From NCBI GenBank assembly GCA_903834835.1, contig CAILKO010000043.1, forward strand, positions 103,787 through 167,786: DNA of 64,000 nucleotides. Direction: 5' to 3'. A program made the position numbers and the translations under genes. The notes beneath the pieces are model-generated. The model did no database searches, was not told the DNA's origin, and was given only the letters and a program-made list of their open reading frames with translations. Below, one piece after another: positions 5,415 through 35,176 of this stretch. Positions within the stretch are counted from its first letter, which is position 1, and every line of letters starts with the position of its first letter. Origin of the DNA: an uncultured Pseudomonadota bacterium. Lineage in GTDB: Bacteria > Pseudomonadota > Gammaproteobacteria > Burkholderiales > SG8-39.

Positions 5415-7742
5415 TCAGGCCGCGCGCGCGCCTTCGATTGCGCGCCATACCTTCTCCGGCGTGGCAGGCATGTCGATCGAGCGCACGCCGAGCGGCGCGA
5501 GCGCATCGACCACCGCGTTCATGATCGCCGGCAGGGCGCCCACATTGCCGGCCTCGCCCGCGCCCTTGACCCCGAGCGGGTTGGTCGGGGTCGGGGCAGG
5601 GATGTTCTCCATGTCGAAGTCGCAGGTGTCGTCCGCGCGCGGCAGGCCATAGTCCATGAATGAACCCGTGAGCAGCTGGCCGGAGTCCGGGTCGTAGCGC
5701 ACGTGCTCGCTGAAGCACTGTCCGATGCCCTGCACGATGCCGCCGTGGATCTGTCCTTCGAGCGTCAGGTGGTTGATGACCGTGCCGACATCGTCAACCA
5801 CCGAATAGCGCAGGATCCGTGTCGTGCCGGTCTCCGGGTCGATCTCGAGCTCGCACACGTGGCAGCCGTTCGGAAAGGTCGGGATCTCCGGGGCGAAGCT
5901 CGCGGTTTCCGCAAGACCGGTCTCCATGTCCTTCGGAATCTGGGACGGAATGTGCGCGACGCGCGCGACCTCGGCAATGCTGACCTTGCGGTCGGTGCCC
6001 GCGACGCGGAATTCACCGTCGCCGAATTCGATGTCCACGGCGGCGGCCTCAAGGATATGCGCGGCGATGCGCTTGCCCTTCTCGATGATCCGGTCGGAGG
6101 CCATCGCGCTCGCCGTGCCGCCGAGCACCGCGGTGCGCGAGGCATAGGTACCGCCGCCGTCGGGCGCGACATCGGTGTCGGACTGCGCGACGCGGATGGT
6201 GTCCGCATCGATCCCGAGACGGTCGCTCACGATGATCTTGTACATGGTTTCGTGGCCCTGGCCCTGCGAGATGGAGCCGGGAATGACGGTGCAGCCGCCG
6301 CTCGGATCGAAGCGGATCTGGATGGTCTCGCCGTAGTACATCGCGGCCTGTTCGATCACGTTGGACAAGCCGATGCCGCGCAACATGCCGCGGCGCTTTG
6401 CTTCCGCGCGGCGCGCTTCGAAACCGCTGTAGTCGGCAATCTGCAGCGCGCGCTCCAGATTGGCGGGAAAGTTGCCGCTGTCCAGCTTGTAGTTGAGGCC
6501 GGTCTGGAAAGGCATCGCGCTCGCGGGCACCGTGTTGCGGCGCCGGATCTCGGCCGCGTCGATACCCATTTCGCGCGCGGCGGTGTCGATCAGGCGTTCG
6601 ATGACATAGGCCGCCTCGGGGCGGCCCGAGCCGCGATAAGGGCCTGCGCAGCCGGTGTTCGTCAGCACCGCAGACACCTCCGCGTAGATCGCAGGCGTGG
6701 TGTAGGTGCCGGCGAGACTGCCGAAATGGGTGGAGGCGGAAATCATGCCGGCCGGGTTCATGTAGGCGCCGATGTTCGAGATGTTCGAAATCCGCGCGGC
6801 GAGAAATTTTCCATTCCGGTCGAGCGCGAGCTCGGCATAGCTGATGTGGTCGCGATCGTGGTCGTCCGAGAGCATGGCCTCGCTGCGATCGCTTACCCAC
6901 TTCACCGGGCGGCCGAGCTGGCGCGACGCCCACAGACAGACCGGATATTCCGGGAACTGGTCGTTCTTCATGCCGAAGCTGCCGCCAACCTCGCCGGAGA
7001 CGAGGCGCAGCTTGGTTTCAGGCATGTGCATGACGAGCTTGGCGATGTGGGTGCGCGTGGCGTGCGGGCGCTGGGTGCCGGCATAGAGCGTGTAGCGGTC
7101 CTCGCGATAGTCGTAATCGCCGATGCAGCCGCGCGCCTCCATGGTGCAGTGCGTGACGCGATTGAATTCCAGACGCAGCTTGGTGACGTGATCGGCGCCC
7201 GCGAAGGCGGCATCGACGCGCGGCTTGTCGCCGATGGCGAAGAAGAAGGTTTCATTGTCCGCGCAGCCGTCCCAGATCGCCGGCGTGCCGGGCTTGCGCG
7301 CACCTTCGGTATCGACCACCACCGGCAGGGCTTCGTACTCGACCGCGACCAGTTCGGCTGCATCCTTCGCCTGGTTGCGGGTTTCGGCGATGATGACTGC
7401 TACGGCCTCGCCGACGAGTTTGACCGTGTCCGCTGCGAGCAGGGCGCGTGCCGGGGCAAACATCGGCGAGCCGTCGCGCCGCTGGCGCTGCAGGAAGGGC
7501 GGCAGGGAACCGAATTTCTCGGGCACGAGATCCGCGCCGGTGTAGACAGCGAGGATGCCCGGGGCCGCGCGTGCGGCACTCGCGTCGATCGACACGATGC
7601 GCGCATGGGCGTGCGGCGAGCGCAGGAAGATCGCATGGCATTCGCCGGACAGCACGAAGTCGTCGAGAAATTTGCCACGGCCGGTGGTGAGACGATCATC
7701 CTCGGTGCGCGGCACCGACTGTCCGATTGCGAATCTGCCCAT
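5415..7742 (-). CDS. Xanthine dehydrogenase/aldehyde oxidase family molybdopterin-binding large subunit (CoxL-like, not form I CODH), paralog 1
   Basis: [23 protein letters not shown]... is the typical N-terminus, and [11 protein letters not shown] and GQGHET motifs are present. I chose the start at 7742, which is preceded by AGGAG. Confidence 0.85.
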
Positions 7743-7772
7743 GTCCTGCTCCTGTTCTGTCTCTCTAAAGGC

Positions 7773-7798
7773 CACCGGGCGACGTCAGTCGCCCGGTG
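7773..7798 (-). other. Perfect 11-bp stem / 4-nt loop hairpin between the two XDH-family paralogs
   Basis: On the minus strand the sequence is CACCGGGCGAC-TGAC-GTCGCCCGGTG, followed by GCCUUUAGAG (a weak U-tract). It sits 20 nt after the paralog 2 stop. Confidence 0.45.
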
Positions 7799-7817: not shown

Positions 7818-10139
7818 TTATTGCGCGGACTGGATCGCGCGCCACACCCGCTCCGGCGTGGCCGGCATGTCGAGGTGACGCACGCCGAGCGGTGACAGGG
7901 CATCGACGACTGCATTCATGATCGCCGGCAGCGCCCCGACGTTGCCGGCCTCGCCCGCGCCCTTGGCACCGAGCGGGTTGGTCGCGGTCGGCACCGGCTG
8001 GTTCTCCATGTCGAAGTCGCAGGTGTCGTCGGCGCGCGGCAGGCCGTAGTCCATGAAGGATCCCGTCAGCAACTGGCCCGTCTCGCTGTCGTAGCGCAGG
8101 TGCTCGCTGAAGGCCTGACCGATACCCTGCACGATGCCGCCGTGGATCTGGCCCTCGAAGGTGAGATGGTTGATCACCGTGCCGACATCGTCTACCACTG
8201 CATAGCGCAGTACTTTCGATTTGCCGGTTTCCGGATCGATCTCGACTTCGCACACATGGCAGCCGTTCGGATAGCTGGCGATTTCCGGGGCGAAGCTCGC
8301 CACCGCGAAGAGTCCGGTCTCGACATCCTTCGGGATGAGGGAGGGCACATGGGCGACGCGCGCGATTTCCGTGATGCCGACCTTGCGGTCGGTGCCCCCG
8401 ACGCGGAATTCGCCGTCGCCGAACTCGATATCAACCGCCGCCGCCTCGAGCAGGTGTGCCGCGATGCGCTTGCCTTTCTCGATGATCTTGTCCGCGGCCA
8501 TGCCGCAGGCGGAACCGCCGAGCACCGCCGTGCGCGAGGCCCAGGTGCCCTGTCCGTCGGAGACGACATCGGTATCCCCGAAGGAGAGCCGCACCGTGTC
8601 CGGATCGATGCCGAGGCGGTCGCTCAGGATGATCTTGTACATCGTTTCGTGGCCCTGGCCGTGCGAGATCGAACCCGCGACCAGCGTGATGCCGCCGCTC
8701 GGATCGAAACGGATTTCCATCGTTTCGCCGAGCAGGTGGGCCGCCTGCTCGATCACGTTTGCAATACCGATGCCGCGCAGCATGCCGCGACGCTTCGCCT
8801 CGGCGCGGCGCGCCTCGAAGCCGGCGTACTCGGAGATCTGGAGCGCACGTTCGAGGTTGGCGGGGAAGTTGCCGCAGTCCAGCTTGTAGGTGAGTCCGGT
8901 CTGGAAGGGCATCGCGCTCGCGGGTACGGTATTGCGCCGGCGGATTTCCGCGCGATCCATCCCCATGTCGCGCGCCGCCACGTCGATCAGACGCTCGATG
9001 ATGTAGGCCGCCTCGGGGCGGCCGGAACCGCGGTAGGGACCGGCGACGCCGGTGTTGGTGAGCACGGCCGAGACTTCGGCATAGATCGCGGGCGTGGTGT
9101 AGGTGCCCGCCAGGCTGCCGAAGTGGGTCGACGCGGAGATCGGGCCCGTCAGGTTGAGGTAGGCGCCGATGTTCGAGATGTTCGAGACCCGCACCGCGAG
9201 GAACCTGCCGTCCCGGTCCAGCGCAATCTCGGCATTGCTGATGTGGTCGCGATCGTGATAGTCGGCCAGCATCGCTTCGCTGCGCTCGCAGATCCACTTT
9301 ACCGGGCGACCGATCTTGCGCGCGGCCCACAGGCAGAGCGGGTACTCGGTGAAGTCCTCGTTCTTCAGGCCGAAACTGCCCCCGACCTCGCCGCTCACGA
9401 TGCGCAGTTTGGTCTCGGGAATTCCGAGGATGGTGCCGGCGATGCCCTTGCGCATTCCGTGGGGACGCTGATTGCCCGAATACAGGGTGTAGCGGTCCTC
9501 GCGGTAGTCGTACTCGCCGATGCAGCCGCGCGTCTCCATCGTGCAGTGCGTGATCCGGTTGAATTCCAGTCGCACCCGGCTTACATGGTGCGCCGTGGCG
9601 AAGGCAGCATCCACGCGTGCCTTGTCGCCGGCCGCGAAGAAGAATGTTTCGTTGTCCGGGCAGTCTTTCCACACGGCGGGAGTGCCCGGCCGCGCAGCGC
9701 TTTCGGTATCGACGACAACCGGCAGCGGATCGTAGTCCACCGCGATGAGCTCAGCCGCATCCTTGGCCTGGTTGCGTGTTTCCGCAATCACCATCGCGAC
9801 GCATTCGCCGAGCAGCATGACGCGTTCGTGCGCAAGCAGGGGGCGGTGGGGCGCGAAGGCAGAGGCGCCGCTGCGCCGGAAGCGCGGCATCATCGGCGCG
9901 AGCCAGCCGAATTTCTCCGGCAGCACGTCCGCGCCGGTGTAGATGGCGAGCACACCCGGGGCTACGCGCGCGGCGTCCGTGTCGACGGACAGGATGCGCG
10001 CATGGGCGTGGGGCGAGCGCAGGAATACCGCGTGGCACTCGTCAGGTAGCGTGTAGTCGTCGAGATAGCGCCCGCGTCCGGTGGTGAGGCGGTCGTCCTC
10101 GGTACGCGGTACGGACTGCCCGATTGCGAATCTGCCCAT
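7818..10139 (-). CDS. Xanthine dehydrogenase family molybdopterin-binding large subunit, paralog 2
   Basis: Collinear with paralog 1 over its whole length (same [23 protein letters not shown] start, [11 protein letters not shown] motif, and so on). The start at 10139 is preceded by AGGAGG. Confidence 0.85.
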
Positions 10140-10396
10140 CGATTTCCTCCTGATGCTGAATTTGCCCCGCGAATGTGCCCAATGCGCACGCGGCTCCCGC
10201 GTGGACGCTAACGCCGTTGGCACAGCCGGTCAAGCGCGCCGCACGCTCCTCGGGGGAGCGGGTGATATCATCGGCAGACCAAGGAAACAGCATCCTGGCC
10301 ATGCGAACAGCGGTCAGGCGACCGCCCGAGCAGACGATGACACGAACGCGAACGCAGTCCGACCACTAGGAACCGGCGGCCGACATCGGGATCACA

Positions 10397-17557: not shown

Positions 17558-17869
17558 ATGACGCTTACAAAGGCTGAACTGGCTGACCTGTTGTTCGAAA
17601 AGGTCGGTCTGAACAAGCGCGAAGCGAAGGACATGGTCGAGGCGTTCTTCGAGGAGATTCGCGGTGCGCTGGAGCGCGGCGAAAGCGTCAAGCTCTCGGG
17701 TTTCGGCAATTTCCAGTTGCGCGACAAGCCGCAGCGTCCGGGACGCAATCCCAAGACCGGCGAGGAAATTCCCATTTCCGCGCGCCGTGTCGTCACCTTC
17801 CACGCGAGCCAGAAGCTGAAAGCCATGGTTGAAAAGGCGCGCCATGGCAACGAATCGAAAGAAGGCTGA
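17558..17869 (+). CDS. ihfA: Integration host factor alpha subunit
   Basis: [35 protein letters not shown]...[26 protein letters not shown] is nearly collinear with E. coli IhfA. I prefer the ATG at 17558 over the GTG at 17552. Confidence 0.95.
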
Positions 17870-18227
17870 ACTCCCTCCGATACCCGCCAAGCGCTACTTC
17901 ACCATCGGTGAGGTAAGCGAGCTTTGCGGCGTCAAGCCCCATGTGCTGCGCTACTGGGAGCAGGAGTTCACGCAGCTGAAACCGGTGAAGCGCCGTGGCA
18001 ACCGGCGCTACTACCAGCACCACGAAGTCCTGCTCATCCGTCGTATCCGCGGCCTGCTCTACGAAGAAGGCTTCACCATCAGCGGGGCGCGTAACCGGCT
18101 CGATAGCGGGCTGGGCGGCGCCGAGCCTGAAACGCAGCGTCCGGCACCTGCGCCCGCCGCGGGCGAAGTGGACCTCAAGGAACTGAAGCGCGAATTGCGC
18201 GAACTGCTCGATACGCTCGGGAAGTAG
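17844..18227 (+). CDS. MerR family transcriptional regulator (the conserved partner of ihfA)
   Basis: [25 protein letters not shown]...RRGNRRYY is a MerR-type HTH. It overlaps the ihfA 3' end by 26 nt. Its effector and targets are unknown. Confidence 0.8.
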
Positions 18228-18251
18228 GGCAGGAGAATCGGGGCTTTCGGG

Positions 18252-18281
18252 ATAGATAGTAACAAATACGTTACTATTTAT
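18252..18281. repeat. AT-rich 30-bp palindrome, copy a (ATAGATAGTAAC AAATAC GTTACTATTTAT)
   Basis: Read directly from the sequence: 12-nt arms (11/12 complementary) around a 6-nt centre. It lies 24 nt after the merR stop and about 90 nt before tRNA-Pro. Confidence 0.85.
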
Positions 18282-18369
18282 TCCGTATCGATCCAGGATT
18301 CTCCCCTCGCGCCTCCGCGCATCAAAAATCGGATACCGCAGTACGCACGGCAGGCTAAAATGGGCGCTT

Positions 18370-18446
<77 letters not shown>

Positions 18447-18468
18447 GAATTCAGGATGGAAGCAGATC

Positions 18469-18494
18469 AAAAGGCCGCAGCGATGCGGCCTTTT
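18469..18494. terminator. Bidirectional intrinsic terminator (AAAA-GGCCGCA-GCGA-TGCGGCC-TTTT)
   Basis: A 7-bp GC-rich stem flanked by an A-tract and a T-tract. It sits between the tRNA-Pro 3' end and the stop of the convergent ANL ligase gene. Confidence 0.75.
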
Positions 18495-18514
18495 GCATTT
18501 CCGCTTTCGTCGAT

Positions 18515-19951
18515 CTAGGTCGAGTCATCCTTCACTCCCATCATCCGCCGTTGCACCTTGCCCGTCCCGGTGCGCGGGAAGCGATCGAAGAACGCGACTT
18601 TCACGTCTCCGAGACTGCTCTTGAGTTCGGCCGTAATGCGGCGGCGCAGGGCGGCCCTGGGTGCGGTGGCGGGCTGTTCGATGCAGACGACGACGGTGTC
18701 CCGCTGGGCGAGCAGCACGCAATCGAGCACGCCATCGATCTGCTTGATTGACTGCTCCCAGGGCGCGGGTGCGAGCTTGATGCCACCGACGTTCAGCACG
18801 TCGTCGCCGCGTCCCAGCAGCTCGAGCACACCCGGTCCCGTCATGCGTCCCAGATCGTTCGACAGGAACCAGCCGTCGCGAAAGTGGCGCGCGCTGAGTT
18901 CGGGTTCATTCAGATAGGCAAGCGTGTTCTGCGGACTTTTAACGGCGATGAGGCCGGTTTCGCCGGCTGGAAGTTCACTACCGTCCGCGGCGCGGATCTT
19001 TACTTCGACGCCGGGGTAGATGAGGCACCTGCCGTCCGCAGTCGATTCCGCGATCTGGCCGGTTTCGTTGGCGGAGTAGGAATTCACCACGCGATCGGCG
19101 AGGGTGGATTCGAGCCAGCGGCGGTTCGCGAGCGGCAGGGCCGCCCCGAGTACCCGGACGGAGTCGAGGCGGCACTGGAACGGCGCCTCGGCGTGCATGC
19201 GTGCCAGCAGTTCGACATCGCGCAGCAGCAGCGGCGCGTGGGAGTGCGGTCTTTGCTGAGCTTCCGCCGGAAACGCCTGCAGGGTCGAAAAGACGGTGCA
19301 TCCCCCGCGGTTCATCGCTGCAACCGCTGCGACGTAGGCGGCACCCACCGTCAGGTCATACAGGGAAATCAGATCGGTGACCGGCGGCTGGAAATACATC
19401 TGCCCGATCAGGCGGATCTGGCTGCACACGCCGGCCCAGGTTTCGCAAAAGAATTTCTTGCCGCCGGTCGTCGCGGAGGTGCTGCCGAGGAATGCGATTT
19501 CCTCTTCGCCGCGAGCGCGCGCAAGGCGTCCCAGGTCGGCAGGGCTTGCGGGCGCTTGCGTAATTTCGCGGATGACATCGGGTGTTATCGGGACGCAGCG
19601 GATGCCGGCGGGCGGCGTCAGATCCATGCGATCAGCGAGCAGGACGTCGCAATGCGCAAGGGCACGGTCGGAGGTCGCAGCGGACGGCGCAAGATGCGCT
19701 GCGGCGGCACCGATGACTTCCAGCGCGAATGCGAGGACCAGTCGCAGATAGCGGTCCTCGCAGGCGACCGCGACCATCATCCCCTGCGCGATGCCGCGCT
19801 CTTCGAGCGCGCGCGCGAATCCGGCGATGTGCGTGGTGAGATCGCGATAGCAGTGGCTGCGCTTGCGCCAGACGACAGCGATGCTGTCGGGCCTGTCACG
19901 CGCCCAGCGCAGCGCGGCCTGCCCGGCTGTCAGGATGCTGTTCGGAGACAT
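18515..19951 (-). CDS. ANL-superfamily adenylate-forming enzyme (divergent acyl-CoA synthetase-like)
   Basis: Degenerate but recognisable motifs are present: STSATTGGKK (A3), YSANETG (A5), GRGDDVLNVGGIKLAP (A8), FPRTGTGKV (A10). I chose the internal ATG at 19951 because the longer ORF would overlap the divergent SDR gene. Confidence 0.65.
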   Translation of the reverse strand: MSPNSILTAGQAALRWARDRPDSIAVVWRKRSHCYRDLTTHIAGFARALEERGIAQGMMVAVACEDRYLRLVLAFALEVIGAAAAHLAPSAATSDRALAHCDVLLADRMDLTPPAGIRCVPITPDVIREITQAPASPADLGRLARARGEEEIAFLGSTSATTGGKKFFCETWAGVCSQIRLIGQMYFQPPVTDLISLYDLTVGAAYVAAVAAMNRGGCTVFSTLQAFPAEAQQRPHSHAPLLLRDVELLARMHAEAPFQCRLDSVRVLGAALPLANRRWLESTLADRVVNSYSANETGQIAESTADGRCLIYPGVEVKIRAADGSELPAGETGLIAVKSPQNTLAYLNEPELSARHFRDGWFLSNDLGRMTGPGVLELLGRGDDVLNVGGIKLAPAPWEQSIKQIDGVLDCVLLAQRDTVVVCIEQPATAPRAALRRRITAELKSSLGDVKVAFFDRFPRTGTGKVQRRMMGVKDDST

Positions 19952-20174
19952 GGCTGGGGGCAGGTCATGGATATTGTCTTTACTGCACGATTGCGGCGTC
20001 GATGATACGCAAGTGTGCGGCGTCGCCGAACGTTTGCGGGCCACCATGTGGAACGAGAAGCGCCGCCAATTGACATCAAGCGCCGCTGCGGCGACCATCG
20101 CAGGCCGGCCAAGGGCCCCCCTCCGCAGGGGGCATGCGGTTCCTGGTCCCCTCAGCGTCTTATAGGAGAAACAC

Positions 20175-21005
20175 ATGGCAGGTCTGGACCCCAAGCAGGC
20201 GGGCAGAGTTCGTCTCAAGGACAAGGTATGCGTCGTGACCGGCGCGGGCCAGGGTATCGGGCGCGCGGTGGCCCGGCGCCTGGGCGACGAGGGCGGCAAG
20301 ATCGTCGTCGCGGAGCGCGTCGACGAGAGCGCTACCCGGACGACGGAAGAACTTACCAAGAGCGGCATCACGGCGATCAAGGCGCTTGCGGACGTGAGCA
20401 CCTACTCGGGCGCGCAGAGCCTGATGAAGACCGCCCTGGACGCCTTCGGGCGGGTCGACGTGCTCGTCAATAACGTCGGTGGCACGATCTGGATCCAGCC
20501 CTTCCATGAGTTCACCGAGGAGCAGATCCATCTCGAGCTGCAGCGCAGCCTGCACACGACGCTGTTCTGCTGCCACGCGGTGCTGCCGATCATGATCAAG
20601 CAGCAGGGCGGGTCGATCGTGAACGTCGGCTCGCAGTCGCCGCGCGGACTCTATCGACTGCCCTATGCGACCTCCAAGGGCGGGGTCATCGCGATGACCA
20701 AGGTGCTCGCGATGGAATACGGCCGCTACAACATCCGCGTGAACTGCGTCTCGCCGGGCGGCACCGCCGTGAACGACATGGTGACCACGCGTCTTACGAT
20801 CAAACCGGGCGAAGTGGCCAAGGCGCCGGAGTCGGAGCAGTACAAGGGCTACCGCGAAGAGATGTACAACGACATCCGCAACCAGCAGGCACTGAAGCGC
20901 TCCGGTACGCCGGACGAGCAGGCCGCGGCCATCGCCTTCCTCGCCTCCGACGATGCGTCGTTCATCACGGGTGATGTGATCAACTGCAGCGGCGGCCAGG
21001 GCTAG
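20175..21005 (+). CDS. Short-chain dehydrogenase, BenD/XylL-like (cis-diol carboxylate dehydrogenase family)
   Basis: TGAGQGIGRAVA (Rossmann motif), NNVGGTIWIQPFHEFTEEQI, YATSKGG, FLASDDASFITG. From memory it is collinear with Acinetobacter BenD. The substrate is not inferable. Confidence 0.7.
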   Translation: MAGLDPKQAGRVRLKDKVCVVTGAGQGIGRAVARRLGDEGGKIVVAERVDESATRTTEELTKSGITAIKALADVSTYSGAQSLMKTALDAFGRVDVLVNNVGGTIWIQPFHEFTEEQIHLELQRSLHTTLFCCHAVLPIMIKQQGGSIVNVGSQSPRGLYRLPYATSKGGVIAMTKVLAMEYGRYNIRVNCVSPGGTAVNDMVTTRLTIKPGEVAKAPESEQYKGYREEMYNDIRNQQALKRSGTPDEQAAAIAFLASDDASFITGDVINCSGGQG

Positions 21006-21031
21006 CCTGACGGGAGTTCAGGAGGGGGAGC

Positions 21032-22651
21032 ATGTACTGGACCGATGATCGGCCCGATCAGACGCTGGGCAGCGCGCTGGCCGGCGCCGTGGAGCGCTAC
21101 GGCGACAAGGAGGCCTATACCTTCCCGGGTCGCCGGATCAGCTTTCGCGAAGCGGATGCCGAATCGGACAGCGTCGCACGTGCCTGCCTCGCGCTCGGGC
21201 TGAAGCGCGGCGACCGGGTCGGTGTACTGATGGCGAGCCACCCGGAGTGGGTGGCGCTTTATTTCGGTCTCGCGAAGATCGGCGTCTCGATGGTGCCGCT
21301 CAATACGCGCTTCAAGGCCTCCGAAATCGAGTTCGTGCTGAAGAAGTCGGGCGTGAAGGCGCTCTTCTTCCGCAGCAGCGACATGAGCGGCAAGGATTAC
21401 GCCGCGCTGCTCGCCGAAGTCGTGCCCGAACTCGGCGCGTCACGTCCGGGCGAGCTGCACTCGGTGGCGCTGCCGGCCCTGCGCACGGTGGTCGATCTCG
21501 CCGAGCGTCCCGCAGCCGGCACGGTCCCCTATGCGGACTTTCTCGCTGGCGCTTCGGGAACGACCCGGGAGACGCTCGCTGCCGCGAGGCGCGCGGTGCA
21601 GCCGCGCGACGAAGCGCTGGTGCAGTTCACCTCGGGCACGACCTCCTTCCCCAAGGGCGCGATGCTCTACCATGCGGGCATGCTGCGTGGTGCGGCGCAC
21701 TCGATCCGGATCATGCGCGTCGGCGAGCGCGATGCGTATTTTTCGGTGCAGCCCTTCTATCACAGTGGCGGTACGCTCGGCACCATGCTGCCGCCCCTGA
21801 TCTCGGGGTGCCGCGTCGTCACGCTGGTCTACTTCGATACCGGCGATGCGCTCGAAATGATGGAGTCGGAACGCGCGACGGTCGTCGTCGGCCATCAGCC
21901 GCACTACATCGAGTATCTGAACCACCCGAGTTTTCCGCAGCGGCGCCTGACGCTCGAACGGATGTTCATCATTGCCGGTCCGGAAATCTTCAGGATGGTG
22001 AAGGAACGCACGGGCATCGACGCGCTGGTTTCCGGCTACGGCATGACCGAGTCGCATCTCTACGGCACGTACACCACGCTCGACGATCCGGAAGTCCTGC
22101 GCTTCAACACCAATGGTCGCGCGGTCGCGGGCGTGGAGGTGGAGATTCGCGATCCGGATGATGGAGTCACGGTGCTCGGCCCGGACGAGGAAGGCGAGAT
22201 CTTCCTGAAGGTCGAGCATCCGATGCTCGGCTATCTCGATGAGCCGGAACTCACCCGCGAAGTGCTGGACGAAGCCGGCTGGTATCGCAGCGGCGACCAG
22301 GGCGTGCTCGGCGCGAACGGCTACCTGCGCCTGCTCGGGCGGGTGCGGGACATGATCCGGGTCGGCGGCGAGAACCTCGCCGGGGCCGAGGTCGAGGCCT
22401 GCCTGCTGGAGCATCCGGCCGTCAAGCAGGCGGCCGCGGTGCCCGGGCCCGACCCGCGTCTGGGTGAAGTGGTGGTGGCCTTTGTCGAGCTGAAGGACGG
22501 CGCGCCGGCGGACGTCCAGGGGCTGATCGAGCACTGCAAGGCGCGACTCGCGAGCTTCAAGGTGCCGCGGGCCGTGCATTTCGTCACCGAGTGGCCGATG
22601 AGCGGGACCGGCAAGATCCAGAAGCGCCTGCTGCTGAAGTCGCTTTCCTGA
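21032..22651 (+). CDS. AMP-dependent acyl-CoA synthetase/ligase
   Basis: FTSGTTSFPKGAML, GYGMTES, YRSGDQG, RVRDMIRVGGENL, SGTGKIQK: the full set of ANL motifs. Confidence 0.85.
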   Translation: MYWTDDRPDQTLGSALAGAVERYGDKEAYTFPGRRISFREADAESDSVARACLALGLKRGDRVGVLMASHPEWVALYFGLAKIGVSMVPLNTRFKASEIEFVLKKSGVKALFFRSSDMSGKDYAALLAEVVPELGASRPGELHSVALPALRTVVDLAERPAAGTVPYADFLAGASGTTRETLAAARRAVQPRDEALVQFTSGTTSFPKGAMLYHAGMLRGAAHSIRIMRVGERDAYFSVQPFYHSGGTLGTMLPPLISGCRVVTLVYFDTGDALEMMESERATVVVGHQPHYIEYLNHPSFPQRRLTLERMFIIAGPEIFRMVKERTGIDALVSGYGMTESHLYGTYTTLDDPEVLRFNTNGRAVAGVEVEIRDPDDGVTVLGPDEEGEIFLKVEHPMLGYLDEPELTREVLDEAGWYRSGDQGVLGANGYLRLLGRVRDMIRVGGENLAGAEVEACLLEHPAVKQAAAVPGPDPRLGEVVVAFVELKDGAPADVQGLIEHCKARLASFKVPRAVHFVTEWPMSGTGKIQKRLLLKSLS

Positions 22652-22786
22652 ACGCGGCGGATGCGAAACCGGTCGGCGTGCGGGCGGCATGCCGGGGAAA
22701 ATCGACTAGTATTGGCGGTCAAGGATTCAGGAGCGGGGCGGCCGGACGCAGCCCTGCCGTATTAACGGAAGAATGAGGAGCCCATC

Positions 22787-23305
22787 ATGGCCGACGTACT
22801 GAAAACCCGGGTCCGCGAACGCGGTCCTACGGAGCACAGCATCTACGAGCGCACGCTGAAGTGGATGGTGGACTGGCGCGAGCGCGCGTTCAAGAAGGCC
22901 ATCGTGCTGAATGGCGACGAGCACGAGTGGGATTCCACCCGCCAGGGGCGGATCAAGTGGTTCATCAACCGCGAGACCGACGACAAGTGCCACGGCGTGC
23001 TGCGCGACTGGAGCGTGTTCCTGCACGACATCAAGACCCACTCGGGCGCGCACCGCCACCAGGGCGGTCTGGTGATCTACGTGATCGAGGGCGAGGGCTA
23101 TACCGAGGTGGACGGGGAGCGCAAGGACTGGCAGGAAGGCGACGCGCTGCTGCTGCCGCTCAAGCCGGACGGCGTGCTGCACAAGCATTTCAACAAGCGC
23201 CCCGGTCAGAAGGCCGTCTGGATCGCGTTCATCTACAGCCCGTACATGGACGAGCTCGGCAAATGGGTCGAGCAGAAGGAAGTCGCGCCCGACTTCCGGG
23301 GATGA
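22787..23305 (+). CDS. Monocupin protein, gentisate-1,2-dioxygenase-like (copy 1)
   Basis: ...HDIKTHSGAHRHQGGLVIYVIEGEGYTEVDGERKDWQEGDALLLP... is a cupin metal motif resembling one barrel of gentisate/1-hydroxy-2-naphthoate dioxygenases. 172 aa. Confidence 0.7.
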   Translation: MADVLKTRVRERGPTEHSIYERTLKWMVDWRERAFKKAIVLNGDEHEWDSTRQGRIKWFINRETDDKCHGVLRDWSVFLHDIKTHSGAHRHQGGLVIYVIEGEGYTEVDGERKDWQEGDALLLPLKPDGVLHKHFNKRPGQKAVWIAFIYSPYMDELGKWVEQKEVAPDFRG

Positions 23306-23310
23306 AGCAA

Positions 23311-23334
23311 GGGTCTGACCCCGGGGTCTGACCC
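23311..23334 (+). other. GC-rich near-palindrome between the cupin copies (GGGTCTGACCC CG GGGTCTGACCC)
   Basis: Two tandem copies of the 11-mer GGGTCTGACCC, which is itself palindromic. Together they can form a ~10-bp stem with a CCGG loop. Confidence 0.5.
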
Positions 23335-23367
23335 TGAGGTGACTGGCGGGCGAGCAGGGGAGTCGAG

Positions 23368-23883
23368 ATGTCCGATGCATTGAAGACCCGTGTCCGCGAG
23401 CGCGGGCCCACCGAGCACAGCATCTACGAGCGCACGCTCAAGTGGATGGTGGACTGGCGCGAGCGCGCATTCAAGCGCGCGATCGTGATCCGCGGCGACG
23501 AGATCGAATGGGAGCAGTCGCGCCAGGGGCGTCTCAAGTGGTTCATCAACCGCGAGACCGACGACACCTGTGTCGGCGCGCTGCGCGACTGGAACGTGTT
23601 TCTGCACGACATCAAGACCCACTCGGGCGCGCATCGTCACCAGGGCGGCCTCGTCATCTACGTGGTCGAAGGCGAGGGGTATACCGAAGTGGACGGCGAC
23701 CGCAAGGACTGGCAGGAGGGCGACGTGCTGCTGCTGCCGCTCAAGCCGGACGGCGTTGTCCACAAGCATTTCAATCGCCGGCCCGGCAAGAGCGCAATCT
23801 GGATGGCGTGGATCTACAGCCCCTACATGGACGAGCTCGGCAAGTGGATCGAGCAGAAGGAAATCTCGCCGGACTTCAAGTAG
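23368..23883 (+). CDS. Monocupin protein, gentisate-1,2-dioxygenase-like (copy 2)
   Basis: By my manual alignment, 143 of 171 residues are identical to copy 1, and the HRHQGGLVIYVVEGEGYTEVDG motif is the same. Confidence 0.7.
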   Translation: MSDALKTRVRERGPTEHSIYERTLKWMVDWRERAFKRAIVIRGDEIEWEQSRQGRLKWFINRETDDTCVGALRDWNVFLHDIKTHSGAHRHQGGLVIYVVEGEGYTEVDGDRKDWQEGDVLLLPLKPDGVVHKHFNRRPGKSAIWMAWIYSPYMDELGKWIEQKEISPDFK

Positions 23884-23929
23884 CGGCTTGGCGCGGGCGC
23901 CGGAGGGGAGGCCGGCGAGTCTTGTGCGA

Positions 23930-23959
23930 ATAGATGGTAACGAATATGTTACTAGCTAT
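23930..23959. repeat. AT-rich 30-bp palindrome, copy b (ATAGATGGTAAC GAATAT GTTACTAGCTAT)
   Basis: It lies 46 nt after the cupin-2 stop and 38 nt before the amidohydrolase ATG. 10/12 arm positions are Watson-Crick complementary (11/12 with a GU pair in RNA). Confidence 0.85.
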
Positions 23960-23997
23960 TTCCTGCAGCCGTTTTCCCGGTCCCCAAGTCGTATGGC

Positions 23998-25257
23998 ATG
24001 GAGAACCCCATGAGCGCACTGCCCGAGGAAATCACTGTCAATCCCGAGAACTGCTGGCGACTCGAGACGCCGGGCGCCCAGGGCTGGGAAGGCTCGGCGC
24101 GACCGGGCACGGAGAAGAAATATTTCATCATCTCCACCGACAGCCACCTCGGGCCACCGCCCACGCTGTTCCGTGATCGCATCGAGAAGAAATACGTCGA
24201 TCGTCTCCCGCGCATCGAGAACCGCGACGGCCGCCGTTACCTCGTGCTGGAAGGGCGTCGACCGATGATGCTCGTGGAGGACACACTTGATGGCGAGGAC
24301 ATGGTGCGCGCCAAGGCCGGCAGCGGCTCGTCGATCGTGTTGCTGGGCGGGGGCGCCAGTTTCGATGAGCGTATCCGCCATCTCGATCTGGACGGCATCG
24401 ACGGCGAAGTGATCTTTCCGAACGGACCGGGTCTGCTGATGTGGGGCACTCACGACCCCGAGTTCGCGATGGCTCAGTGCCGTATCTGGAATACCTGGGC
24501 CTGGGAGCTGTGCGAGGCGCACAAGGCGCGTTGCAATCCGGCAGCGGCCCTCGCCACGGGCGACCTGGAAGGCTCGATCCGGGAAGTGGAACGCGTCGCG
24601 AAGCTGGGCTACCGCGTGCTCGCGCTGCCCTGCAAGCCGATCTGGGGCCCGGGCGACGCGATGCACGTGAACTACAACCAGAAGCACTTCGACCCGCTGT
24701 GGGCGGCGATTCAGGACGCGGATCTGGCGATCACGTTTCATGTCTCGACCGGCACCGATCCGCGCGGCGCGCGTTCCGACGGCGGCGCGATCATCAATTA
24801 TGTGATCCACGCGACCGCGCCGACCATGGAGCCGGTGGTGAATCTGTGCGCCTCGGGCGTGCTTGACCGCTTCCCCGGGCTGCGCTTTGCCACCATCGAG
24901 GCGAATGCGGGCTGGCTGCCGTGGCTGCTCGATACCATGGACGAGGGCGTGCGCAAGCACCACATGTACGTGAACCCGAAGCTCAGGATGCTGCCGAGCG
25001 AGTACTTCAGGGCGCATGGCGGGGCCTCGGTCTGTGACGATCGGGCGGCGCTGTTGCTGGTCGAGAAATTCGGGCTGGAGAACAACCTGATGTTCGCGAA
25101 CGACTACCCGCACCATGAGGGGAGCTGGCCGCATTCCGCCCAGGTGATCGAGCGCAACATGGGGCATCTGCGGGAAGGGACGCGGCGCAGGATACTCGGA
25201 CTCAACGCGGCGCGCTTCTTCCGCTTCGACATTCCGGAACAGTACCGCAACGTCTGA
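23998..25257 (+). CDS. Amidohydro_2 (ACMSD/LigW-type) metal-dependent hydrolase/decarboxylase family protein
   Basis: IISTDSH..., ITFHVSTG..., NLMFANDYPHHEG is the characteristic metal-ligand pattern of the amidohydrolase-2 family. 419 aa. Confidence 0.75.
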   Translation: MENPMSALPEEITVNPENCWRLETPGAQGWEGSARPGTEKKYFIISTDSHLGPPPTLFRDRIEKKYVDRLPRIENRDGRRYLVLEGRRPMMLVEDTLDGEDMVRAKAGSGSSIVLLGGGASFDERIRHLDLDGIDGEVIFPNGPGLLMWGTHDPEFAMAQCRIWNTWAWELCEAHKARCNPAAALATGDLEGSIREVERVAKLGYRVLALPCKPIWGPGDAMHVNYNQKHFDPLWAAIQDADLAITFHVSTGTDPRGARSDGGAIINYVIHATAPTMEPVVNLCASGVLDRFPGLRFATIEANAGWLPWLLDTMDEGVRKHHMYVNPKLRMLPSEYFRAHGGASVCDDRAALLLVEKFGLENNLMFANDYPHHEGSWPHSAQVIERNMGHLREGTRRRILGLNAARFFRFDIPEQYRNV

Positions 25258-25273
25258 TCACGAGGAGCAGTCC

Positions 25274-25885
25274 ATGGATGCGAGGACCGAGAACGCACTG
25301 CAGCGCTTCGTGCGCAAGACGCGGGCGCTGTTCGCAAGCGAGGCCGACCCGGAACGGCGCTGGACCGCGCTCAGCCCCGCGTTTGCCGAGCTCCTGGCAG
25401 ATCCCGCGGTGATCGAGGCCTCGCGCAGCTGGCCTGACTGCATGCCTTCGGACGGACGCGCGGAGAATCTGCTGTTCTATGTGGATCCGGATTACGGGTT
25501 TGCGATCAACGGGCTCACGAAGGCAACCGACCAGAGCGGCGCGCCGCGCATCCACCACCATGCCCACCTCTATACGCTGTACGGCGTGCTGGACGGCCAT
25601 GAGCGCATGGAGCGCTATGAGCGGCTCGACGACGGTACGCGCGCAGGCTATGCGGAAATCCGCAGGACCGTGGATTCGACGGTGGGGCCTGGCGAAATCG
25701 ATCTCGTACGGCCCTACGAGGTGCACGCCGAGGTGACCGTAGGCGAGCGGACGGTGGCGGTGATCGTACGCAGTGAAAAGGCAGGCAGCTTCAACCAGGG
25801 GCGGTTTCTGCCCGACGAGAAGCGCTACTACGAGAGCCTGGGACCGAAGCAGACGCCTTGCGAGATGCTGCCCGCGCGCGCCTGA
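25274..25885 (+). CDS. Cysteine-dioxygenase-type-I-like cupin (double-stranded beta-helix metalloenzyme)
   Basis: ...NLLFYVDPDYGFAINGL...PRIHHHAHLYTLYGVLDGHERMERYERLDDG...VRPYEVHAE... follows the pattern of CDO_I/COG5553-like proteins. Confidence 0.6.
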   Translation: MDARTENALQRFVRKTRALFASEADPERRWTALSPAFAELLADPAVIEASRSWPDCMPSDGRAENLLFYVDPDYGFAINGLTKATDQSGAPRIHHHAHLYTLYGVLDGHERMERYERLDDGTRAGYAEIRRTVDSTVGPGEIDLVRPYEVHAEVTVGERTVAVIVRSEKAGSFNQGRFLPDEKRYYESLGPKQTPCEMLPARA

Positions 25886-25900
25886 GCGCGTTGCGGTGGC

Positions 25901-26281
25901 TTAGCGCAGAGCGGGGAAATTCGGTGCGCGGGGAGCTTCCGCGCACGCACCGCGCTGCAGCGCCTGTAGTTCTTCCAGAGGACGCGCGGTATCGTCAACA
26001 TCGCGTCCGCGTATCGAAACCACGATCCGCGGGCCCGGCACAGGTATTCGCGCGCTGTACCAGACCGGCGGCGTGCTGGACATCATCAGCGTGCCGGTCT
26101 GCGGGTCCTTCCAGCTGTACACCTGGGCTGCACAGGGGAGTGGAAGGGCAAGCATCAAGGCGGCGGGAATTGCAAATCTTGTCAAGGGAATTTCTTGTTC
26201 GGGTGCGATGGAAGAAGGCGCGCATGATGCAGCAAAATGTGGCGAAAGCCTGTGCGAAATGTAACGTTGGGGACGGTTCAC
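25901..26281 (-). CDS. DUF4124 domain protein (secreted; start uncertain)
   Basis: A signal-like AIPAALMLALPLPCAAQ is followed by VYSWKDPQTGTLMMSSTPP (DUF4124 motif). The ORF-track start is a GTG, and a later start (for example the TTG at 'LTRF') is possible. Confidence 0.55.
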   Translation of the reverse strand: MNRPQRYISHRLSPHFAASCAPSSIAPEQEIPLTRFAIPAALMLALPLPCAAQVYSWKDPQTGTLMMSSTPPVWYSARIPVPGPRIVVSIRGRDVDDTARPLEELQALQRGACAEAPRAPNFPALR

Positions 26282-26331
26282 TGCGATGAAGCTTGATCGC
26301 TACCCGGGAACTTCAGGATTGAGGAGGATGC

Positions 26332-27672
26332 ATGTCTGAAGCAGGACGACTCTTTTTCCGTTTCGCGCTGCGCGCGACCCTCGCGGTTGCGATTGCCGTC
26401 GGCCTCTGGGCGGCGGGCATTCCCGCGGAGTTCGTGCTGTTCGCGCTGACGCTCGCGGGCGTCGCGCTGCTGCACCGGCACAACCTCCAGGTTGCGCTCA
26501 CGGGTCTCGCGGTGCTGACGCTCTACAAGCTCGGCTTCGCGGAGTTCAAATCCGGGCCCGGGTTCGGCGGCCTCGTTCAGCACCTCGCGCATGAATGGGT
26601 GATTCTCGCAAACCTTTTCGCGCTGCTGCTCGGATTCGCGCTGCTCGCGAGGCAGTTCGAGGAAAGCAGGCTGCCGCTGGTACTGCCGCGCATTCTGCCG
26701 GACGACTGGCGCGGCGGTTTCATGCTGCTCGTGATGATCTTCGTGCTGTCGTCCTTCCTCGACAACATCGCGGCGGCGCTGATCGGGGGATCTATTGCCG
26801 GCACGGTGTTTCGTGGACGCGTGCATATCGGCTATCTCGCGGCGATTGTCGCAGCCTCGAACGCCGGGGGTGCGGGCAGCGTGGTCGGCGACACGACCAC
26901 CACGATGATGTGGCTGGACGGCGTCGATCCGCGCGAGGTGCTCGAGGCTTTCCTCGCTTCCGGGACGGCGGTCGTGATCTTCGGCATTCCCGCATCGCTG
27001 CAGCAGCATCGCCACTCCCCGATCACGGCGGATGCACCGGTGGGCGTAAGCATCGACTGGGCGCGGGTGGCAATCGTCGCGATGATGCTCGTCGCCGCGA
27101 TCGTGGCGAACGTGTCCGCCAACCTGGTTTTTCCCGCGCTGGCGGACGCGTTTCCGCTGCTCGGCGCTTCGGTCTGGGCGGTTATCCTGCTTACCGCGGG
27201 CTGGCGCAGGCCTGCCTGGGAATCCCTGCCCGAGGCGCTGAAGGGCAGCATCTTTCTGCTCTCGCTCATACTGTGCGCGTCCTACATGCCGGTCGAAACC
27301 CTGCCGCCGGCCGGCTGGGATACGGCATTCGGTCTGGGTTTCGTTTCGGCGGTCTTCGACAACATTCCGCTTACTGCGCTTGCGCTGAAGCAGGGCGGGT
27401 ACGACTGGGGTTTCCTTGCGTTTGCGGTCGGCTTCGGCGGTTCGATGATCTGGTTCGGATCGAGCGCCGGTGTGGCGCTGGCAAGCGTCTATCCGCAGGC
27501 GCGTTCGGTGGGTTTGTGGATCCGGCACGGGTGGCCGATTGTCGTAGCCTATGTTGCTGGGTTCTTCGTGCTGCTCGCAGTGCAGGGTTGGCATCCGCAT
27601 GCGCCGCACAAACGCGGTGCGGCGCCTGTCGTGCAGCAGGCGGTCCAGCAGGCCCAGGGCACCAGCCAGTGA
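26332..27672 (+). CDS. Ion-transporter-superfamily permease (ArsB/NhaD/CitMHS-like)
   Basis: About 12 predicted TM segments with duplicated SSFLDNIAAALI / SAVFDNIPLTALAL motifs. A GAGGAGG SD precedes the ATG. Confidence 0.65.
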   Translation: MSEAGRLFFRFALRATLAVAIAVGLWAAGIPAEFVLFALTLAGVALLHRHNLQVALTGLAVLTLYKLGFAEFKSGPGFGGLVQHLAHEWVILANLFALLLGFALLARQFEESRLPLVLPRILPDDWRGGFMLLVMIFVLSSFLDNIAAALIGGSIAGTVFRGRVHIGYLAAIVAASNAGGAGSVVGDTTTTMMWLDGVDPREVLEAFLASGTAVVIFGIPASLQQHRHSPITADAPVGVSIDWARVAIVAMMLVAAIVANVSANLVFPALADAFPLLGASVWAVILLTAGWRRPAWESLPEALKGSIFLLSLILCASYMPVETLPPAGWDTAFGLGFVSAVFDNIPLTALALKQGGYDWGFLAFAVGFGGSMIWFGSSAGVALASVYPQARSVGLWIRHGWPIVVAYVAGFFVLLAVQGWHPHAPHKRGAAPVVQQAVQQAQGTSQ

Positions 27673-28478
27673 GTACCGCCGCGCAGCTTTCGCTCATGCC
27701 GGTGACCATCTCGGATGCGGGACCGATCGAAGTGGTCGACGCGGCGGTGGCGGCGGGTTACGACTCCTACGGCCTGACGCTCTGGGGATTTTCCGGCGGT
27801 GCGAGCGCTACGCTCGGCGATCCCGCCGCGATGCGTGCGCTGGAAGCCCGGGTGCGCGATGCGGGGCTGCCGGTACTCACAATTGAAGCGGTCGGGCTTG
27901 CGCCGGATTTCAGGCTGGCGCCGCTGGAGCCGCTGCTCGATGCGGCCGCGCGCCTCTCGTGTCCCTACCTGAACGTATGCGGGGACGATCCGGACGAGGG
28001 GCGCATGACGGACAGCCTCGCGGCGCTCGCGACGCTCGCGGCCACGCGCGGCGTGCGCATCGCGCTGGAGTTCATATCGCGGCTGAAGCTGCGCAGCATC
28101 GGCCAGGCGCGCGCGATGATCGAACGGGCTGGCGTACCCGGCATCGAACTCGTCGTGGATTCGCTGCATCTGTATCGTTCCGGCGGTCAGGCGGCGGACC
28201 TCGCCGGGCTGGCGGCAGCGCAGGTCGCCTACGCCCAGCTCTGCGATGCGCCGTTGCTGCGCCCGCCGGAACCGGAGTACGTGATGGAAGGGCGCACGAA
28301 CCGGCTGTATCCAGGGGAGGGCGGCCTGCCGCTGGGCGAGTTTCTTGACGCATTGCCGCCGGGACGGCCGCTGGGTGTCGAAGTGCCGAATCTCGCGAGC
28401 AATCGCCACGCGCCGAGGGAGCGCGCGCGGCTCGCGCTCGACATGACGCGGCGGTATCTTGCCGCGCGCGGCGCCTAG
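27669..28478 (+). CDS. Xylose-isomerase-like TIM-barrel protein (sugar phosphate isomerase/epimerase family)
   Basis: Only the C-terminal 269 codons of ORF 26595..28478 are credible: ...RIALEFISRLKLRSIGQARAMIERAG...VVDSLHLYRSGG.... The GTG at 27669 overlaps the transporter stop (GTGA). An ATG at 27696 is the alternative start. Confidence 0.55.
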   Translation: MSTAAQLSLMPVTISDAGPIEVVDAAVAAGYDSYGLTLWGFSGGASATLGDPAAMRALEARVRDAGLPVLTIEAVGLAPDFRLAPLEPLLDAAARLSCPYLNVCGDDPDEGRMTDSLAALATLAATRGVRIALEFISRLKLRSIGQARAMIERAGVPGIELVVDSLHLYRSGGQAADLAGLAAAQVAYAQLCDAPLLRPPEPEYVMEGRTNRLYPGEGGLPLGEFLDALPPGRPLGVEVPNLASNRHAPRERARLALDMTRRYLAARGA

Positions 28479-28972
28479 GAGCGCGCGGGCCGGGCGCGAG
28501 CCTTCGGTTCCGGTTTTGGTATCGGGAGCGGGCTTTCCTTTAGGCAGCGCAATACGAAATTGGACTTGCTGTGCCGGATGCCTGGAATCTTGTACAGGCG
28601 TTCGCGCAGCAGCCGCTCGTAGTCGCGCGTGTCCTGGACGGCAATGCGCAGAAAATAATCGTATTCGCCGGACACGAGGTAGGCTTCCAGCACTTCGGGT
28701 ATCTGGCGCAAGGCTTTTCCGAAGTCGTACAGCGTCTCGTCCGAGTGGCTCTCCAGCGTGAGCTGCAGGATCACTGTGTCGTGCAGTCCCACCGCGTCAG
28801 GATTGATACGCGTGATATAGCCCTGGATGACGCCTTCCTTCTCAAGACGCTTGATGCGGTTCCAGCACGGTGTGGAGGAAAGGCCGACCTCGGCGCTGAT
28901 CTCCTGCAGGCTGGCGCGGGCATGTCCCTGCAGGAAGCGCAGGATCGCAAGATCGAACTTGTCCAGAGCCAT
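28475..28972 (-). CDS. Lrp/AsnC family transcriptional regulator (BkdR-like)
   Basis: MALDKFDLAILRFLQGHARASLQEISAEVGLSSTPCWNRIKRLEKEGVIQGY... is an HTH_AsnC plus RAM domain. It is divergent from the ALS-like/bkd genes. The internal ATG at 28972 is the start. Confidence 0.85.
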   Translation of the reverse strand: MALDKFDLAILRFLQGHARASLQEISAEVGLSSTPCWNRIKRLEKEGVIQGYITRINPDAVGLHDTVILQLTLESHSDETLYDFGKALRQIPEVLEAYLVSGEYDYFLRIAVQDTRDYERLLRERLYKIPGIRHSKSNFVLRCLKESPLPIPKPEPKARARPARS

Positions 28973-29082
28973 GAAAAAATCCTTCTTGTAAATGACCAAA
29001 ACAGGAAAATTTTTCCAATTCATGGAGAAGATACAGGATACTGCGGACAGTTTTTTTTCGCCGGCCGAATTACAGTAGCGCC
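28973..29082. promoter_or_regulatory. AT-rich divergent control region between the Lrp-type regulator and the ALS-like/bkd operon
   Basis: This is a locally AT-rich 110 bp (AAAAAATCCTTCTTGTAAATGACCAAAACAGGAAAATTTTTCCAATTCATGG...). It is analogous to the bkdR-bkdA1 region of Pseudomonas. No individual sites were assigned. Confidence 0.4.
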
Positions 29083-30897: not shown

Positions 30898-30902
30898 ACT
30901 GA

Positions 30903-32318
<1,416 letters not shown>

Positions 32319-32320
32319 TC

Positions 32321-33334: not shown

Positions 33335-33337
33335 GCC

Positions 33338-34564: not shown

Positions 34565-34609
34565 GCGCGTGCGCGACGCGGTGAAGGGAGCCTGGCGGGC
34601 CTGGACTAT

Positions 34610-34639
34610 ATAAATAGTAACAAATATGTTACTAACTGT
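34610..34639. repeat. AT-rich 30-bp palindrome, copy c (ATAAATAGTAAC AAATAT GTTACTAACTGT)
   Basis: It lies 45 nt after the bkdB stop and 46 nt after the stop of the convergent thioredoxin-like gene. The core 7+7 is perfect and the outer arm is degenerate. Confidence 0.8.
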
Positions 34640-34685
34640 TCCGTCGCAGCCCGCCATGTTCCTCGGGCGGCCCGGTGGCTGCGTC

Positions 34686-35087
34686 TCAGCTGGCGAGCAG
34701 CAGGCTGCGCAGGTTCCTGTCCGTCTGCCACTGCCTGCGCTCCGGTGTCGCTAACGCATGTGCCCGGGCCTCGTCGGGTGTCTGTGCGAACAGTTCGTTC
34801 AGCAGGCGCTCGGCCTGTGCGATATACGGGGGCAGGGTGCCATAGAACAGCACCAGTTCGCCGCGCTGGACGAGGAGGGTCGGAAAGTTCTCGACCTCGA
34901 AATCGTCCACCCGCTCGGCCTCGTCCTCGACGTCCACCCATGCGAATGCCGCGCGCGGAAAGGCAGCGGCAAGCGCATTGAAGGGGGCCTGGTACTGGCG
35001 GCAGGTGTCGCACCAGTCCGCGCAGAGGCACGCCACGAGAAATTCCTTCTCGCGCAGGACTTGCGGGCTGGGCAGGGGTCCGGACAT
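34686..35087 (-). CDS. Thioredoxin-family protein
   Basis: ...FLVACLCADWCDTCRQYQAPF... carries a WCxxC motif in a thioredoxin-fold context. 133 aa. Confidence 0.7.
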   Translation of the reverse strand: MSGPLPSPQVLREKEFLVACLCADWCDTCRQYQAPFNALAAAFPRAAFAWVDVEDEAERVDDFEVENFPTLLVQRGELVLFYGTLPPYIAQAERLLNELFAQTPDEARAHALATPERRQWQTDRNLRSLLLAS

Positions 35088-35176
35088 GGGATGCGGAATC
35101 TATCGCCAATTCCGGGCTTGCGCCAGCGTTATGCGGTCGGCCCGACGGTGGCATCGGCTAGAATGCAAGCCGACAA

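Follow-up and report, generated by a model that had tools for sequence, protein, structure and literature searches.

Some antitoxins of toxin-antitoxin (TA) systems bind operator-like palindromes in trans, outside their own operon, as with MqsA at rpoS and csgD, and Pseudomonas aeruginosa HigA at mvfR. REP elements, which are usually GC-rich and number tens to hundreds of copies per genome, and BIMEs are short imperfect extragenic palindromes, located near stop codons and often between convergent genes, and form lineage-specific families that are kept at orthologous sites in close relatives, all features that they share with the element described here. Half-sites related to those of this element are present in the TyrR/PhhR box, TGTAAA-N6-TTTACA, and in the motif of HcpR2, a CRP/FNR regulator, which has the form GTAAC-N4-GTTAC in the hcp regulons of Clostridia and Bacteroides (PMC1274295). 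The closest system, however, is the operator of reverse-order type II Gp49/TIGR02683 TA operons, e.g. that encoding the antitoxin WP_162571616.1 on plasmid 3 of Variovorax sp. SRS16. String searches of the literature for the motif were negative, and a paper on a Gp49 higBA system gives no operator sequence.

The window, i.e. the whole 64-kb stretch of DNA analysed, contains three copies of an AT-rich palindrome, at the coordinates and with the sequences given in the initial annotation: copy a (18252-18281, ATAGATAGTAAC-AAATAC-GTTACTATTTAT, with its core, TAGTAAC-N6-GTTACTA, at 18257-18276), copy b (23930-23959, ATAGATGGTAAC-GAATAT-GTTACTAGCTAT, core at 23935-23954) and copy c (34610-34639, ATAAATAGTAAC-AAATAT-GTTACTAACTGT, core at 34615-34634). 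All three have the same orientation, with the A-rich side of the centre (RAATAY) on the plus strand. The contexts described earlier, including the gaps to the preceding plus-strand stop codons, were also confirmed, with one refinement for copy b. Thus, the ihfA-linked MerR gene (17844-18227) ends 24 nt ahead of copy a, which is itself 88 nt before tRNA-Pro(GGG) (18370-18446). Copy b lies 46 nt past the stop of a cupin gene (23883), and its end is 38 nt from the first ATG of the Amidohydro_2 ORF, or 50 nt from the start used by the database protein P0001, an amidohydrolase. Copy c lies 45 nt past the stop of a 2-oxoacid dehydrogenase E2 acyltransferase gene (34564) and 46 nt before the stop (34686) of a convergent thioredoxin-like gene on the minus strand.

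These are real elements, not products of chance, and they are under selection. When up to three mismatches are allowed, a 22-mer consensus matches the window at copies a, b and c only, the expectation from 100 shuffles being 0.00, and GTAAC-N6-GTTAC occurs exactly three times in the 64 kb; as estimated from base composition, a chance match of 14 out of 14 arm bases at 65% GC is very unlikely. In keeping with the earlier statement that no other intergenic region has the motif, neither scan finds a copy in the other 47 kb of the window. By contrast, the lone half-site reported at 61457-61465 exists, yet is within chance, with three one-mismatch matches besides the six arms of copies a, b and c, compared with 2.5 expected. 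The palindrome arms extend to 10-12 bp in the window copies, and the outer arms (ATAGA.../...TCTAT) are alike among the three, a resemblance that reaches beyond the TA operator. The T(T)CC continuation, previously taken as part of the conserved element, is present in the window copies but is missing from more distant ones (those in the contigs L090 and L038, see below).

The window is from an uncultured member of the Burkholderiales or Betaproteobacteria; its DNA is also present in ENA metagenomes (L001-L004), and the nearest named matches to its PheT are 65-68% identical. Comparisons were made with a syntenic relative, GCA_947475665.1 (L028/L032), that is 95.2% identical over 20.6 kb; with L091, of ~88% nucleotide identity and with several deletions; with L090, of ~78% nucleotide identity and 77% identity in PheT; and with the sister lineages L092 and L102 (PheT 71-73%). 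All three sites are kept in L028, and sites a and b in L091, copy b persisting there even though the amidohydrolase gene that follows it has largely been deleted. L090 retains site a within a spacer that otherwise can hardly be aligned. The spacer between the MerR gene and tRNA-Pro in L092 and L102 is ~50 nt long and has no palindrome.

The arms of copy a show 0/14 changes across L028, L091 and L090, even though ~60% of the aligned columns in the flanks of the site differ in L090, and in copy c of L028 the arms are intact, with 6/10 positions changed in the outer arms and 1/6 in the centre. Whichever pair is compared, there are 0-1/14 changes in the 7+7 arm positions (T[A/G]GTAAC and GTTACTA), whereas up to 3/6 positions are changed in the 6-bp centre and up to 7/10 in the outer 5+5 bp. 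The centres read AAATAC, GAATAT, AAATAT, ATAAAT, GTATAT and CTATAT, that of copy b alone drifting among the relatives from GAATAT to AAATAT or ATAAAT. An alignment of 11 copies shows the inner seven pairs to be invariant, except that two copies have an A-to-G change, with a G-U pair as the result, and the outer five pairs to include 14 unpaired cells versus four with double changes; for the covariation score, 28 of 500 shuffles reach the observed value. The unit under selection thus appears to be the 20-bp core, with selection apparently acting on base identity. As was originally proposed on the basis of the sequence-level conservation, invariant arms combined with drifting centres, outer arms and flanks are more readily explained by a dimeric DNA-binding protein than by an RNA hairpin, since a stem that has only to pair would not produce such a result; that proposal gains further support from the use of the identical 20-mer as a promoter-operator elsewhere. 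At site a of L090 (13150-13189) half-site and centre are repeated once more in direct orientation (ATAGCAACGTATAC, TATAGTAACGTATAT, GTTACTATA), so that three half-sites follow one another.

The pattern TRGTAACRAATAYGTTACTA was scanned against 185,579 genomes (one per species), giving 20 matches, none of them on a contig of this lineage, and against JGI metagenomes, giving 53. The centre was fixed as RAATAY in both scans, while the relatives have GTATAT, ATAAAT and CTATAT, so that both TA operators and orphan copies are undersampled, only one orphan, that in L038, being caught. Half of the matches are in GC-rich DNA; the chance occurrence of an AT-rich 20-mer in a GC-rich genome is, as estimated from base composition, very rare. 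HMMs built from the ORFs that flank the motif loci show that, at 32 of the 38 loci with a GC fraction of at least 0.5, a single TA family directly abuts the palindrome; three further loci, from Paraburkholderia, have a different Gp49-type pair. The toxin is a Gp49-domain, TIGR02683-type RelE/ParE protein. The antitoxin, of ~105 residues and with the N terminus MALTRDFKETI, is predicted from a KSLMRMLGPSGNP-like motif to be a helix-turn-helix (HTH) protein, and its family has no match in Pfam, NCBIfam or the PDB, though it occurs across phyla. Members of the antitoxin family include those in the TA loci L008, L009, L039, L062 and L077, and others, and in L112 and L113; in GenBank the antitoxin is annotated only as 'transcriptional regulator'.

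The palindrome in these TA loci is located between a -35 hexamer and a TG-extended -10 box, TACTAT, that is formed by the right arm, e.g. in L039, which has TTGACA-16-TACTAT with TG. The start codon (ATG) follows only a few nt past the -10 box, suggesting a leaderless mRNA. The same TA family is present on Burkholderiales plasmids, i.e. in Variovorax SRS16 and Simplicispira suum, with GGTAAC-CTATAC-GTCACC and GGGAAC-CTATAC-GTTACC upstream; the gene tables of these Variovorax and Simplicispira plasmids do not list the toxin upstream of the antitoxin. The core T[G/A]GTAAC-N6-GTTAC[T/C]A is matched by copies a, b and c, and that of copy b has the same 20 nt as the TA operator TGGTAACGAATATGTTACTA (the operator in L008, L013, L020 and L023), a match which, having come from a search with the window's own pattern, shows that the family exists rather than that it acts here. 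As judged from sequence, the core is the putative autoregulatory promoter-operator of the Gp49/TIGR02683 TA family in many phyla.

Comparison of the window copies with these operators reveals a close similarity in the element itself and a clear difference in setting. Both have 20-22 bp of the form a-T[G/A]GTAAC-N6-GTTACTA-t, with N6 spacing and an AT-rich centre, copy b matching at 20/20 positions, and the stretch that is constrained in the window lineage is that held in common with the operators. By contrast with the operators, the window copies have longer arms, are not accompanied by TA genes and, instead of being ahead of an operon, follow stop codons or separate convergent genes. The toxin and antitoxin HMMs find nothing in the window, L028, L032, L090, L091, L102 or L038, with tblastn likewise negative, and the 64 kb of the window and ~300 kb of related loci encode neither a TA-family protein nor an XRE-type regulator. 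There is no -35 match at any window copy, and no ATG or following ORF just past the TACTAT box; no promoter-like site was called at copies a and b, and only a weak minus-strand match at copy c. The -10 box itself is degraded in copies b (TACTAG) and c (TACTAA). With neither adjacent TA genes, nor a -35 box, nor a downstream ORF, the window copies look like orphan operators.

Two further copies were found outside the locus, one at 374-393 of L090, between the convergent ends of desaturase and ppk genes, and the other in L038, a metagenome contig of 217 kb with no relation to the window, where a gene for an RTX/Big-domain protein has its stop codon 53 nt away. The five independent sites (a, b, c, L090 and L038) are thus all extragenic, the distance to a stop codon being 24-82 nt, and three of them separate convergent genes; the density of copies is ~1 per 15-20 kb (three in the 64-kb window and two in 13.6 kb of L090). 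A BLAST search of plasmids with a 33-mer returned only noise, and a scan of viral contigs for GATAGTAAC-N6-GTTACTATC only AT-rich phage hairpins with T-runs. A contig of a Streptosporangiaceae MAG (L017, 5190-5240) has the same 20-mer centred in a perfect palindrome of ~46 bp, ctaacatgaatgtTAGTAACAAATATGTTACTAacattcatgttag, between genes for an enoyl-CoA hydratase and an AAA_16/DUF234 ATPase, with no TA genes nearby.

With regard to the genomic setting, copies a, b and c are all in or beside the 16.6-kb block (18447-35100) between tRNA-Pro(GGG) and surE. The block is absent from the sister lineages L092 and L102, in which tRNA-Pro is directly followed by surE-pcm-nlpD, and represents an insertion beside a tRNA gene, or a loss in the sister lineages; no integrase was seen. 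It encodes CoA ligases, an SDR, two cupins, the Amidohydro_2 protein, an AsnC regulator, a TPP enzyme, E1 alpha/beta, E2 and the thioredoxin-like protein. The tandem cupin genes (22787-23305 and 23368-23883), with ~85% DNA identity, are a recent tandem duplication that is present also in L028 and L091; elsewhere in the window, 5415-7775 and 7818-10223 (minus strand) are adjacent paralogues encoding large subunits of molybdopterin-binding aldehyde oxidase/xanthine dehydrogenase type (786 and 801 residues). Between copy a and tRNA-Pro there is a terminator-like hairpin with a T-run on the minus strand (18334-18352), with no obvious minus-strand transcript. The window and L028 cease to be homologous 14 nt past the right end of copy c (window 34653, L028 20647), implying that the thioredoxin-like gene is not at that position in this relative; the next 147 nt of L028 have no match in the window, and the contigs L028 and L029 end there.

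The best reading of these results, which is put forward tentatively, is that the element is a lineage-specific dispersed repeat that carries an orphan TA-type operator, to which an HTH protein encoded elsewhere would bind. The ancestral unit may have been of ~26-30 bp, close to AGATAGTAAC-N6-GTTACTATCT, and have given rise to a small family of dispersed extragenic palindromes; the resemblance of the outer arms of copies a, b and c points to common descent from such a unit, with the copies probably having multiplied by copy-and-paste and not having arisen independently at each site. The 20-bp core, T[A/G]GTAAC-N6-GTTACTA, would be the recognition site for a dimeric DNA-binding protein, the likeliest candidate being an HTH protein of the antitoxin family (MALTRDFKETI...), the partner of Gp49/TIGR02683 RelE/ParE toxins, presumably encoded elsewhere in the genome. 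It may be conjectured that the protein, once bound, serves as a roadblock to transcription or as an insulator at the ends of operons, or that the sites are decoys. Several points count against this proposal: the predicted binder is not among the proteins encoded by the window or the related loci, sites between convergent genes are unusual for transcription factor regulons, and we know of no mechanism for copying a 30-bp palindrome. The recurrence of an antitoxin palindrome elsewhere in the chromosome, where it would be bound in trans, is an idea that applies equally to MqsA and HigA, although the sites of those proteins are in the promoters of regulated genes, whereas the window copies are near-perfect, at 3' ends and probably related by descent. 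The more specific scenario, in which selection maintains copies of a TA operator that have been placed, separated from its genes, at the 3' ends of chromosomal operons in one Burkholderiales lineage, with an antitoxin-type HTH protein serving as a genome-wide roadblock or insulator or with the sites titrating the antitoxin, is unlikely as a whole.

The main rival is a REP-like element without a dedicated regulator, i.e. a hairpin repeat in transcribed 3' regions, spread or kept uniform by a RAYT-type Y1 transposase or by gene conversion, and having a structural, mRNA-stabilising or nucleoid-protein function; this is doubtful, although much in the placement of the copies favours it. The extragenic position of all five independent sites, the preference for convergent gene ends and the density are each consistent with such a repeat, as are the limitation of the family to one lineage (it is absent from the L092 and L102 spacers) and the sharing by the copies of more sequence than an operator needs, in the outer arms. 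The initial annotation had considered that a regulatory role would be weakened by REP-like scattering or by absence from orthologous loci; the former is partly borne out, in that further copies do lie outside the locus, at gene 3' ends. Orthologous sites are kept in L028, L091 and L090. In other respects, the element is unlike a REP: the stem is AT-rich and weak in a genome of 65% GC, there is no GTAG-type 5' motif beside it, no RAYT/Y1 or other transposase is encoded among the Pfam-scanned genes of the window, and the other 47 kb of the window have no copy. Furthermore, the arms are invariant to ~78% DNA identity while the outer stem decays, so that it is base identity rather than pairing that is constrained, which has the look of base-specific recognition. 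The same observation bears on the next rival, an RNA element at operon 3' ends, in which an AU-rich hairpin is a weak terminator, 3' stabiliser or processing site, e.g. separating the pheST-ihfA-merR mRNA from tRNA-Pro. All the window copies do follow plus-strand stops in the direction of transcription, the plus-strand folds of copies a (-24.2 kcal/mol, z = -7.7) and c (-17.3 kcal/mol, z = -4.4) are stable, the left-arm A-to-G changes keep G-U pairs on the plus strand only, and the same hairpin, with a T-run after it, is found in AT-rich phage contigs. However, the inner stem is invariant, rather than covarying, save for the one wobble position, the outer stem gathers uncompensated mismatches, and the fold of copy b is no better than those of shuffles (z = -1.8). 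There is neither a GC-rich stem nor a U-tract, the stems having only two G-C pairs in the inner 8 bp and being followed by T(T)CC, and neither a terminator-like call on the copies nor a match in Rfam was obtained. On balance, the RNA reading is rather unlikely.

The readings of the element as a promoter, a MerR or TyrR site, or a recombination site are unlikely. It is improbable that the copies are promoter-operator modules, with the right arm as a TG-extended -10 box (TGtTACTAT) and a repressor controlling tRNA-Pro (copy a) and the amidohydrolase operon (copy b), though the same sequence is a promoter in the TA loci, copy b is 38-50 nt upstream of a start codon, and TGTTACTAT is present in copies b and c of L028, b of L091 and a of L090. 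The absence of a -35 and the degraded -10 boxes in the window, the retention of copy b in L091 next to a mostly deleted gene, and the facing of copy c, the second L090 copy and that in L038 onto convergent gene ends, with nothing to drive, all argue against it. So does the presence before tRNA-Pro of its own conserved -10-like box, 8-9 nt from the mature 5' end, which reads TAAAAT, TAGAAT or TATAAT in all lineages (window 18357-18362; L090 13257-13262; L092/L102) and has no recognisable -35. The ihfA-linked MerR-family protein, suggested earlier as a candidate binder, has in its favour that copy a stays 24 nt past its gene across four lineages and that a dyad of 7-6-7 would suit a MerR-type site in size; yet residues 5-88 of the protein are essentially identical, with two isolated substitutions, in six lineages that include the palindrome-free L092 and L102, so that nothing ties the element to it, and no copy is inside a -35/-10 spacer of 19-20 bp, as MerR-type dyads are. 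The similarity to a TyrR/PhhR box noted initially stands with respect to the skeleton (GTAA-N8-TTAC and G-N14-C, with N6-type spacing), and, as was also noted, there is no TyrR/PhhR gene in the window, where PilR is the only sigma-54 activator. TyrR boxes have an invariant G-N14-C and are located upstream of aromatic amino-acid genes, whereas the sites here are at gene 3' ends, and the similarity does not extend further, in that only 8/12 box positions match, invariant positions differ, the inner base is C/G not A/T, the outer base is A not T, and the TAG/CTA extension is foreign to the TyrR box. Given also the location of three of the five sites at convergent gene ends, an operator for either MerR or TyrR is highly improbable. 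Among other regulators, HcpR2 does not match in spacing (6 bp here versus 4), nor is there an hcp context, and none of the IHF, Fis and Lrp consensus sequences, compared by eye, fits. The window itself encodes the ihfA-linked MerR, IhfA, an AsnC-type protein and PilR, of which the AsnC-type regulator (28475-28972) has its own divergent promoter region without a related motif. Most improbable of all is that the copies are core sites for a site-specific recombinase (arm-6 bp-arm, dif/pdif-like) that delimit modules of the 16.6-kb block; the variant of the preferred reading in which recombination at the direct repeats assembles gene modules beside tRNA-Pro is likewise less likely. The direct orientation of the three copies, their asymmetric 6-bp centres with inverted arms, the manner in which they bracket and subdivide a block absent from sister lineages, and the end of synteny with the 95% relative just right of copy c are suggestive. 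Against this, the centres are not the same in all copies and have drifted among close relatives (AAATAC, GAATAT, AAATAT, ATAAAT, GTATAT), which would block strand exchange, copy a is upstream of the ancestral tRNA, the copy next to ppk in L090 has no connection with the block, the L091 deletions do not end at palindromes, and the window has no recombinase gene.

Irrespective of how the window copies function, a by-product of this work is the definition of the operator as T[G/A]GTAAC-N6-GTTAC[T/C]A, positioned between the -35 and -10 elements of the TA promoter. Should the window copies be only REP-like hairpins, then the finding is an ordinary one, save for the unusual AT-rich composition. If, on the other hand, an antitoxin-type HTH protein binds the orphan operators, a TA operator would have spread as a free-standing repeat that is kept at operon ends, so connecting TA autoregulation with REP-like repeats and with the way in which transcription units are insulated. 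The fuller scenario, if true, would mean that a TA system has been wired into host transcription via a dispersed 'solo-operator' repeat.
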